DNA of 15,416 nt, from the IMG/VR virus record IMGVR_UViG_2778261167_000001; one strand, given 5' to 3'. Shown here in pieces: positions 14,389 to 15,416 of the stretch. Origin of the DNA: a virus (Duplodnaviria > Heunggongvirae > Uroviricota > Caudoviricetes). Both the position numbers and the translations under genes were made by a program. A model generated the notes under the pieces. The model was not told the origin of the DNA. It searched no databases and saw only the letters and a list, made by a program, of their open reading frames with translations. Numbering within the stretch: position 1 is the first letter of the stretch; each line of letters opens with the position of its first letter.

Positions 14389-14571
14389 TCACGATTTCAG
14401 AGCAACAATCAATTTTGCCAGCCCATACAGCATCGGAGACACGGCGATGCCAACCGCCACCCACTTAATGGCAAAAGCCACCGCTCTGCTGATGTCATCA
14501 GTTACAGGCGCTTTCAATTCAAGGCCGTTTTTCATAGTCAACCTCAACAGAATTCGTTTATACTTCTCCAT
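14389..14571 (-). CDS. Possible 60-aa small membrane protein
   Basis: From ATG 14571 (AGGGAG RBS; the ORF-track start at 14592 is TTG): MEKYKRILLRLTMKNGLELKAPVTDDISRAVAFAIKWVAVGIAVSPMLYGLAKLIVALKS. Basic amphipathic N-terminus and C-terminal TM helix. Confidence 0.4.
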   Translation of the reverse strand: MEKYKRILLRLTMKNGLELKAPVTDDISRAVAFAIKWVAVGIAVSPMLYGLAKLIVALKS

Positions 14572-14604
14572 GTTCTCCCTTGTCTTACCCAAGGTCAGAA
14601 ACAG

Positions 14605-14645
14605 AAAACCCCGGACTGTTCCCCCAGCCGGGGTTTTGCTTTTTC
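14605..14645. terminator. Bidirectional hairpin terminator between the endolysin and the small-ORF cluster
   Basis: CCCCGG...CCGGGG stem (plus 14609-14633) flanked by an A-run upstream and TTTTGCTTTTT downstream, so each strand has a U-tract after the stem. Confidence 0.6.
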
Positions 14646-14711
14646 AGTAAGTCTAATGTCGTGCTATCTGCAAAGTGGATTTACCGACTTCATTGAAAAG
14701 TGGAATTTCAA

Positions 14712-15257
14712 CTACACTCCCACGCGTTCTTTCATCCAGCCATAGACAAACGACTCGTTGGCCTCGCGTTTCTCTGCCAGCTCCAGATAGCGGTCACCCT
14801 GCGTGCAATTCAGCGCCTTCAGCATCACCAGTTCGCCATCCCTGCCACGATTTTTCAGATATGCCCGTAGCGCATTAAGAGTACGCGGCCCGATGCGTCC
14901 ATCAGCATCCATATCCGGATACAGTTTCCCGCGCAGGTTGAAAACGTTAAGCCAGCGTTGAAGCATTTTTGACGCCACGGTTGGCCCCATGTTCACGCCC
15001 GTATCACACAACTCTGCTGCAATATCAGGGGATAACGCTGCCACCTGGTCAAAACGTGGTCCGAACCAGTAATCCGCCTCGAGTATTTCCAGCGCCTGAC
15101 CGCGTGTAAGGTCGCGCATATCGCCGCGATATCCGTGTGCGCGGGCGACTTTTTCCGTAACACCCCATTTTGTCGGCCCGCCTTTATCGTCCGGATGATT
15201 GACGTAGCCACCCTCTTTTCCGAGGATTTCATCAAAAATGACGTCCTTCGATTTCAT
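14712..15257 (-). CDS. Endolysin: GH108-family lysozyme domain with C-terminal peptidoglycan-binding (PG_binding_3-like) domain
   Basis: N-terminal ...ILGKEGGYVNHPDDKGGPTKWGVT... is the GH108 signature as I recall it. 181 aa. ATG 15257 lies 1 nt after the stop of the upstream hydrophobic ORF. Confidence 0.8.
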   Translation of the reverse strand: MKSKDVIFDEILGKEGGYVNHPDDKGGPTKWGVTEKVARAHGYRGDMRDLTRGQALEILEADYWFGPRFDQVAALSPDIAAELCDTGVNMGPTVASKMLQRWLNVFNLRGKLYPDMDADGRIGPRTLNALRAYLKNRGRDGELVMLKALNCTQGDRYLELAEKREANESFVYGWMKERVGV

Positions 15258-15258
15258 C

Positions 15259-15416
15259 TCAGTGCCTCAACAATGGAAAGATTCTTGTGACGTTCCCGCG
15301 TGCGCGTATCACCAGCACGCAGAACAGCAGGTTAAAAAACACTTCCAGCCAGCCCGTTGCTAACGGGCGACCACACAGATAGCTGAGGGGCGCAAAGGCA
15401 TACAGCAGCATCAGCA
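15259..15416 (-). CDS. Hydrophobic membrane protein, C-terminal part only; probable holin
   Basis: Minus frame ending at TGA 15259-15261 reads ...LMLLYAFAPLSYLCGRPLATGWLEVFFNLLFCVLVIRARGNVTRIFPLLRH*. Sits immediately upstream of the endolysin in holin position. N-terminus lies outside the window. Confidence 0.4.
   Translation of the reverse strand, partial: LMLLYAFAPLSYLCGRPLATGWLEVFFNLLFCVLVIRARGNVTRIFPLLRH

Follow-up and report, generated by a model that had tools for sequence, protein, structure and literature searches.

The window analysed here (that is, a whole 15,416-bp stretch of Caudoviricetes DNA, IMG/VR record IMGVR_UViG_2778261167_000001) is the complete assembly contig NTPA01000053.1 of GCA_002463585.1, which breaks off inside a holin gene. 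As judged by gene content and similarity, it holds the distal half of a late lysis cassette of the type found in the Stx2e phage phiP27 (NC_003356), a type that is already catalogued and not novel as such. Behind the endolysin gene of this cassette lies the gene of a 60-amino-acid (aa) lipoprotein, here called D, and on the basis of its sequence, conservation and position we lean, with slightly better than even confidence, towards D as the protein of the outer-membrane step. We further suggest, far more tentatively, that D may act without a phage inner-membrane partner (that is, as a stand-alone factor and a third solution beside spanins and disruptins), a proposal that we hold to be possible but doubtful. 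Of the steps of phage lysis, disruption of the outer membrane is understood least, and the D cassette type includes Stx2e and Stx2k toxin phages, with D also present in prophages of Salmonella, Citrobacter, Cronobacter and Yersinia.

D has a 30-aa signal peptide, a lipobox (LLVG-C31) with valine and no aspartate at position +2, and a 30-aa mature part without proline. By inspection, it follows a PROSITE PS51257-style rule, with Lys or Arg among the first seven residues, Cys at position 31 and no charge in the six residues before the lipobox. Valine at +2 implies Lol sorting to the outer membrane and, given the rule-conforming lipobox and the absence of Asp at +2, D should reach the outer membrane in lipidated form. 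Among homologues, the invariant residues include Gly30-Cys31 of the lipobox, Cys48 and Cys57; as residues 1-9 (M-x-R-K-H-W-T-H-R) are also conserved and position 10 is usually Thr, the true start is taken to be Met1 (60 aa) and not Met10 of a 51-aa form. Over 52 distinct alleles the ratio of nonsynonymous to synonymous polymorphism (pN/pS) is 0.20, and 89 of 90 copies are intact; judged by this allele comparison, D is a real gene under purifying selection. The family is narrow, with 22 relatives found by profile search among 1.84 billion representative proteins, essentially all of 44-85 aa, and the most divergent of these keep a basic n-region, an L[VAM]GC lipobox and two cysteines 8-9 residues apart. 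Among complete Escherichia coli genomes, 317 of 5426 (~6%, roughly 1 in 17) carry D.

Other origins considered for D were rejected. It is not a truncated form of a longer outer-membrane spanin (o-spanin), given the uniformly small size of the relatives in the profile search, and it is not an internal-deletion remnant of Rz (that is, the transmembrane (TM) segment joined to the C-terminal end), given that DNA and protein alignments were no better than shuffles (alignment z of 1.6 for the Rz of GER2 and 0.1 for that of lambda). A heptad register matches the N-terminal half of Braun's lipoprotein (Lpp) by eye at ~25% identity, which was judged chance-level for any sequence of 3-4 repeats, and mimicry of Lpp was set aside. 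Among the homologues, P0011 has a tandem 10-residue duplication (QLFDTASQVC twice) that adds a third periplasmic Cys, and P0133, of 220 aa, shares only the first 32 residues of D and is presumably a fusion. The signal-peptide region is unusually conserved in the alignment. At the nucleotide level, a hairpin of 11 pairs followed by TTTTTATTGG lies at 14046-14071 (-) in the window, inside D codons 17-29 (that is, within the signal-peptide coding region), and the third positions of codons 16-26 are almost invariant over the 52 alleles (mean ~0.01 versus ~0.08 in the mature part), which hints at a constraint on RNA or DNA (for example, an attenuator or terminator), or merely at low diversity.

The position of D was compared across the best 80 of 280 IMG/VR loci that encode it, onto which a protein panel was mapped; the restriction to the best 80 counts against the assignment of D to the outer-membrane step. 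In the D loci that reach far enough, the constant set consists of Phage_holin_8, Phage_holin_3_7, an endolysin and D, the endolysin being an M15 peptidase in 48 and a glycoside hydrolase family 108 (GH108) enzyme in 29 of the 80. In ~33 of the 80 (~40%), the endolysin stop lies ~12 nt from the D start with nothing between them. Inserts found at this place in other loci are ORF A with a 44-aa TM open reading frame (ORF), a 57-aa 'RWW' ORF, ORFs B and C (as in the window, where A, B and C all precede D), a 93-aa soluble ORF, a KilA-N gene or a phiP27-specific segment; ORF E comes after D in ~45% of loci. The order extends across genera: M15 endolysin and D are separated by 15 nt in Salmonella salamae and by 6 nt in a divergent metagenomic locus, the stop of GH108 and the ATG of D overlap by 4 nt in Yersinia enterocolitica, and Cronobacter has GH108, A, the 44-aa ORF and D. 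D is the sole post-endolysin gene conserved across these genera. In sister cassettes the same slot holds spanin genes: PhiR5_2 and E. coli prophages have lysozyme, A, a 43-aa ORF and Rz/Rz1 against endolysin, A, the 44-aa ORF and D, and divergent D loci (endolysin, D-like gene, gp53-like ORF) parallel phage mEp390. By gene order, D thus occupies the position of Rz/Rz1 or of other two-component spanins in sister cassettes. An earlier note on this DNA had described the only nearby lipoprotein as 60 aa long and not proline-rich, which is correct for D (at a site outside the interval 14389-15416 covered by that note), and had then set it aside; D is nevertheless the one conserved post-endolysin gene and is listed as the o-spanin of phiP27 (PMC6139136).

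The last 50 codons of the holin ORF (15259-15411) are separated by a single base (15258) from the endolysin ATG (15257-15255), in agreement with the coupling that the earlier note had reported. The source gene call on the same contig (L006) assigns PF05449 (Phage_holin_3_7) to the 51-aa holin fragment, which is 80% identical to the 92-aa holin of locus L002 (itself a match to PHROG 217 holin, E 7e-37), and the ORF is placed in this family on the C-terminal half that lies inside the window. The GH108 type proposed previously for the endolysin also holds: the 181-aa ORF matches Pfam Glyco_hydro_108 (E 1.1e-25, 90.4 bits against a gathering cutoff of 21.2) and PG_binding_3 (E 1.5e-26, 92.8 bits against 24.6) as well as PHROG 315 endolysin, and has an EGGY motif at residues 15-18. 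Both its domains (PF05838 and PF09374) and its place next to the holin assign it to the GH108 endolysins; its score for NCBIfam holin_dep_muram is under the family cutoff. Its N-terminus has no hydrophobic segment, signal or signal-anchor-release sequence, and pN/pS is 0.10 (35 loci).

In the sequence of events that we propose, the holins would permeabilise the inner membrane and the GH108 enzyme would break down the murein, whereas D would be lipidated at Cys31, cut by signal peptidase II and sorted to the outer membrane. D may then be released as a 30-residue helix, in which disulfides within or between molecules could link the two invariant cysteines, as happens in spanins, and would perform or nucleate outer-membrane failure, most likely as a disulfide-linked helical lipopeptide. 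If D acts alone, its conserved 30-residue signal peptide might help it to breach or destabilise the outer membrane after murein degradation. Colicin lysis proteins (that is, bacteriocin release proteins) offer a parallel: they have a ~45-60-aa precursor with a lipobox, a mature lipopeptide of ~28-33 residues that compromises the envelope, and a stable, functional signal peptide; they are Gly/Ser/Thr-rich and act with OmpLA, without holin or endolysin. The likeness of D to these proteins is one of analogy, limited to size and lipoprotein build, and D differs in its predicted helix with two Cys; the analogy could possibly fit the unusual conservation of the signal-peptide region. Another small protein in place of spanins is the phiKT gp28 disruptin (bioRxiv 10.1101/515445), a single cationic, antimicrobial-peptide-like outer-membrane disruptor that is amphipathic and has no signal sequence, unlike D, which is a lipoprotein of net charge -1.

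Set beside lambda Rz/Rz1, D shares the slot after the endolysin in a Q-dependent late lysis cassette, the build of an outer-membrane-type lipoprotein with one or more periplasmic cysteines, and the company of A/43-aa or RWW ORFs, which can precede either Rz/Rz1 or D. Unlike lambda, the window has no Rz-like type II coiled-coil membrane protein and no embedded gene, and the mature part of Rz1 is 40 aa against 30 aa in D, which is predicted to be helical, is free of proline and shows no sequence similarity in the alignments with Rz. Phage mEp390 (gp48-gp52) has the same plan of a two-holin module (~47% identity), an endolysin and then outer-membrane-step genes, but there the endolysin is followed by a 91-aa inner-membrane spanin (i-spanin), gp51, with an N-terminal TM segment and ~65 periplasmic residues, overlapping the lipobox o-spanin gp52, and then by the acidic 65-aa gp53. 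D cassettes, by contrast, have only the lipoprotein, and D is unrelated in sequence to gp52. An acidic ORF of 65-83 aa with the motif ...LTAEQI..LA.FAKEDG.P.Y...PEYTGLIAYS..HGVLQL recurs in L100 (481-732), L101 (4176-4394) and mEp390 (L098, 4244-4441); it lies after the spanins in mEp390 and overlaps the 3' ends of D-like genes by 14 nt in divergent loci, and this gp53-like ORF is a conserved, uncharacterised companion of outer-membrane-step genes.

Several observations weigh against assigning the outer-membrane step to D, and in particular against its acting alone. Mature D has a net charge of -1, is not proline-rich and is only moderately amphipathic; its AlphaFold2 model is a single helix of low confidence (mean predicted local distance difference test score, pLDDT, 66); and a helix of 30 residues would reach ~4.5 nm, much less than the width of the periplasm. 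In lambda, Rz1 has no activity unless Rz is present. In the window, a terminator-like hairpin separates the endolysin from A-B-C-D, and their co-expression therefore hangs on antiterminated read-through. The Rac-SA53 prophage shares the holins and the GH108 endolysin, but LT-IIa toxin genes come next and D is missing, which shows that the cassette can exist without D, whether or not that prophage is competent for lysis, and GER2 holds a decayed copy of D alongside Rz/Rz1. A literature search, which did not extend to the 2002 phiP27 genome paper (PMC127862), found no experimental work on D or a relative of it.

These points leave room for the view that D is no lysis effector but an accessory lipoprotein expressed late or in the lysogen (for example, for exclusion, receptor masking or envelope modification), and that the phages are truly spanin-less and open the outer membrane by shear, by a membrane-active small protein such as the cationic A, or by the endolysin alone. 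We consider this unlikely. It is consistent with the mosaic nature of the region between the lysis and terminase genes, in which toxin genes replace D in Rac-SA53 and L31-like halves flank D in L011 and L026, and with the lack of homology between D and any characterised lysis protein (no Pfam match at E<0.1, and noise only in a sequence-profile search of the PDB). Precedent exists as well, given that 91 of the 677 phages in the census of Kongari et al. 2018 (PMC6139136; that is, ~13%, all Gram-negative phages) have no identifiable spanin and that the phiKT disruptin is a non-spanin solution. However, D is the only post-endolysin gene kept across genera, it replaces spanins position for position, and its coupling to, or overlap with, the endolysin gene would be unusual in a moron that carries a promoter of its own; PADLOC, used to look for defence or exclusion annotation, gave no match for A-E. 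Nor can A be the general solution, given that it is missing from most D cassettes and co-occurs with Rz/Rz1. In Rac-SA53 (L099, KU052037; 3001-5438), eltIIaA and eltIIaB stand directly after holin_8/holin_3_7/GH108, in the spanin slot. The sequences like the 5' and 3' halves of phiP27 L31 lie on either side of D at 5902-5985 and 6202-6318 in L011 and at 786-869 and 1086-1202 in L026, an arrangement suggesting that D, or L31, moved by illegitimate recombination and that D behaves as a discrete module.

For D to be the protein of the outer-membrane step, the question of a partner arises, and here the search for a spanin bears directly. D agrees with the description of the o-spanin of a two-component spanin (that is, a short, lipobox-bearing lipoprotein without Asp at +2 whose gene belongs to a lysis cassette). 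An i-spanin (type II, with an N-terminal TM segment and a periplasmic domain that is mostly a coiled coil, its gene adjoining, overlapping or embedding that of the o-spanin) was found neither in the window nor, as a conserved ORF, in the 80 loci. Downstream of the endolysin, the window has no ORF with an N-terminal TM segment and a 100-150-aa periplasmic domain and no embedded lipoprotein ORF, and a lipobox scan of all 15.4 kb returned D as the only credible lipobox ORF; the earlier statement that no Rz/Rz1-like pair lies downstream, so that something else must take that role, is thus upheld by ORF and lipobox scans of the window. Across the 80 loci, the lipobox scan gave no recurring lipobox ORF besides D, and clustering of same-strand ORFs gave no conserved N-terminal-TM protein with a periplasmic domain. 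A hidden embedded or overlapping i-spanin was rejected, as the clustering yielded only hitch-hiking alternative-frame ORFs within the M15 gene, whose hydrophobic start phiP27 does not share, and the L32 frame across D, which is hydrophilic. The complete 40-kb prophage of a relative (NZ_CP182387, from int to the ompW attachment site) has no annotated spanin, and a lipobox scan of its late-gene strand showed D as the only credible lipoprotein. Other known solutions were not recognised either: D contributes 30 periplasmic residues with no partner domain found to bridge both membranes; it ends in ...VRQCLQN with no hydrophobic C-terminal segment, as a unimolecular spanin of the T1 gp11 type would have; mature D lacks the positive charge of a disruptin of the phiKT gp28 type, and ORF A, which is cationic (+6), has a TM segment and co-occurs with canonical spanins; and the search at E<0.1 gave no match between D and the colicin lysis proteins (Pfam Lysis_col).

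A partner has been published for phiP27. Kongari et al. 2018 (PMC6139136) assign this phage a two-component spanin of the 'separated' class, which with 62 periplasmic residues marks the short end of their census (range 62-300) and comprises an i-spanin at 20348-20542 (64 aa) and an o-spanin at 20706-20861 (51 aa, 30 mature periplasmic residues, 83% helix by Jpred). Window D is 98% identical to this o-spanin ORF over the 51-aa form, and for this reason the lipoprotein dismissed in the earlier note is the published o-spanin candidate of the cassette type. The 64-aa 'i-spanin' ORF has a TTG start and no PHROG family, occurs only in phiP27 and near-identical contigs, and is absent from the window. 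Antisense to it runs a 90-aa ORF with a full-length match to PHROG 36812 (E 5e-20; in L001, which is phiP27, 4779-5051 (+) against 4841-5035 (-)), and in L041 (3045-3311) this antisense gene persists uninterrupted at 46% identity, whereas a stop codon closes the 'i-spanin' frame 6 codons past the TM segment. From this comparison, we regard the published phiP27 i-spanin as a probable shadow ORF on the strand opposite a conserved gene. Of the 279 Stx phages studied by Pinto et al. 2021, 277 had Rz, and the sole M15 canonical endolysin pham of that work, present in two phages, is placed with the classical holin in the two-member Stx2e cluster C; we infer that those two M15 phages are the two Stx phages without Rz, and are of phiP27 type.

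It could still be that D is the o-spanin of a genuine minimal two-component spanin, paired in the inner membrane with a small TM protein from the gene immediately before it (the 64-aa ORF of phiP27, and B or C here), which we regard as improbable. Besides the classification by Kongari et al. (PMC6139136), this view can draw on the chain of B, C and D, which is translationally coupled (ATGA, then TGA-n-ATG), on the purifying selection on B and C, on the presence of a small TM ORF directly upstream of D in ~60% of loci, and on the topology of B, which is possibly N-out with a 26-aa periplasmic segment carrying a Cys. Against this, the phiP27 i-spanin ORF is not conserved and is disrupted in L041 as described above, endolysin and D adjoin with no intervening ORF in ~40% of D cassettes, the small TM ORFs upstream of D fall into no fewer than three unrelated types that are also found ahead of canonical Rz/Rz1 elsewhere, and A and C are essentially without a periplasmic domain.

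The small ORFs themselves, as judged by their conservation, are real genes, but accessory ones. ORF A has a basic N-terminus (net +6) and a single C-terminal TM segment, ORF C is the TM half of an 'RWW' paralogue of A, and in A, B and C alike the TM segments are C-terminal or near-terminal, with 0-8 residues beyond. The B stop overlaps the C ATG (ATGA) and the C stop lies 1 nt before the D ATG. Compared with L050/L054, B has nine differences, every one of them a synonymous third-position change (pN 0), and C shows four synonymous changes and one conservative change; A has a pN/pS of 0.53, the full-length 'RWW' paralogue one of 0.12 and the 44-aa ORF of sister loci one of 0.11. A is present in 1557 of 5426 complete E. 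coli genomes (29%), five times more than D. The usual place of A is between lysozyme and canonical Rz/Rz1: in PhiR5_2 and ordinary E. coli lambdoid prophages, the order is holin, lysozyme, A, a 43-aa ORF and then Rz with embedded Rz1; in GER2 the RWW ORF abuts Rz/Rz1, as C abuts D in the window; and ~40% of D-bearing cassettes are without these small membrane ORFs. As the same types accompany canonical Rz/Rz1 as well as D, we consider them to be accessory and no substitutes for spanins; gene order marks A, B, C and the hairpin as mosaic passengers, of a family seen for the most part alongside canonical Rz/Rz1. The hairpin (14605-14637) is terminator-like on both strands. The antisense ORF translation that crosses it (...NPGLF.QPGFCFF...) is seen again in L002, ahead of A, and in L007, ahead of the RWW ORF, and the hairpin thus seems to travel with small TM ORFs, placed before the small gene and not behind it.

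The options left by the earlier note (that is, a canonical Rz/Rz1 pair or unimolecular spanin elsewhere in the element, on another contig, or replacement of spanins by A, B and C) appear very improbable: the contig does stop inside the holin gene with the rest of the element out of view, and A, B and C are real membrane-protein genes in the cassette, but the genes that come directly after the cassette are those of terminase, portal and head, without a lipobox ORF among them, the spanin position after the endolysin is filled by D in relatives, the full-prophage check that the note had called for revealed no spanin in the NZ_CP182387 element and, per Kongari et al., D with a doubtful partner in phiP27 (to which the data of Pinto et al. 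may be added), and the A/43-44-aa and RWW ORFs adjoin canonical Rz/Rz1 in many phages (PhiR5_2, GER2 and E. coli prophages), A being so much commoner than D.

If D does act as a stand-alone protein, the phiP27 i-spanin would be an annotation artefact and D a compact, experimentally tractable lysis gene; were D alone to suffice, it would constitute a minimal outer-membrane-lytic module of use for lysis biology, toxin release by Shiga-toxigenic E. coli and engineered lysis, and were it not to suffice, these phages would provide a clean test case for spanin-independent release. The only published spanin assignment for this cassette type, the 'shortest spanin' of the census, combines a solid gene, that of the lipoprotein, with an ORF that the present comparison makes doubtful, and a lysis cassette common among Enterobacterales prophages is thereby left with its outer-membrane step unexplained. 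For annotation, we suggest taking Met1 as the start of D-family ORFs (PHROG 7528), which gives 60 aa, marking these ORFs as lipoproteins of the spanin slot, and treating ORFs of PHROG 1115, 4493 and 4906 as accessory lysis-cassette genes.

All genes of the lysis region are encoded on the minus strand (Table 1). As the window is one entire contig, the first holin gene, that of the Phage_holin_8 protein, and the rest of the prophage, including its early region, are out of view.

Table 1. Features of the lysis region of the 15,416-bp window, in order of transcription
Feature	Coordinates	Strand	Remarks
Second holin, C-terminal ~51 codons (Phage_holin_3_7 family)	15259..15416	-	Cut by contig end; stop TGA 15261-15259
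Endolysin, 181 aa, GH108 muramidase domain and PG_binding_3	14712..15257	-	Pfam and PHROG 315
Strong terminator-like hairpin between endolysin and ORF A	14605..14637	-	A-tract, ~13-bp GC-rich stem, U-tract
ORF A, 60 aa, PHROG 1115	14389..14571	-	E 2.6e-45; 60-aa gene in source call on contig
ORF B, 49 aa, one TM segment at residues 27-45	14205..14354	-	Synonymous-only differences from L050/L054
ORF C, 28 aa (MSADF...AVRWW), PHROG 4493	14122..14208	-	Called as 28 aa in source gene call
Lipoprotein D, 60 aa, PHROG 7528	13938..14120	-	Lipobox LVG-C31; orthologue of phiP27 'o-spanin'
ORF E, 98 aa, acidic, soluble, PHROG 1935, phiP27 L33	13553..13849	-	No membrane protein; context only
Small terminase subunit, DUF1441 / PHROG 141	12758..13252	-	Downstream limit of lysis region

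Overall, the lysis region is mosaic with that of phiP27. The two share the holin_8/holin_3_7 pair (88-89% identity), the lipoprotein (98%) and ORF E (95%), and they differ in the endolysin (M15 in phiP27, GH108 here) and in the segment that follows it, where the L31/antisense orf90/64-aa i-spanin segment of phiP27 is replaced in the window by the hairpin with A, B and C. They also differ in the virion genes, which are lambda/Gifsy-like in the window (DUF1441 small terminase subunit (TerS), GpA large terminase subunit (TerL)) and not HK97/HNH-like. Terminase, portal and head genes follow the cassette directly, with no lipobox ORF among them. This packaging and head module (686-12758 (-)) is lambda/Gifsy-2-like, with the DUF1441 TerS, a 700-aa GpA TerL, Phage_portal_2, a ClpP-protease/capsid fusion and Minor_tail_Z/U, whereas phiP27 and most D-bearing relatives have HNH with P27-family TerS and HK97-type heads instead; given this difference, the lysis cassette has been swapped independently of the virion module.

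The position of the contig end is itself shared, in that the independent assemblies GCA_002463585.1 and GCA_003298705.1 both break inside holin_3_7 (at window end 15416 and at position 1 of L005, respectively), which suggests that the holin region is repeated across several prophages of these genomes. Parts of the 2-kb lysis-region stretch 13400-15416 match at most 10 places per E. coli genome. One further locus, L009 (PP818812.1, 'Actinobacillus phage vB_Apl-pPE4', host Actinobacillus pleuropneumoniae), has a holin/M15 endolysin/D cassette whose proteins are 85-98% identical to those of the E. coli phiP27 type and whose DNA matches the window at 92.8%, and its host assignment looks questionable, or the transfer very recent.

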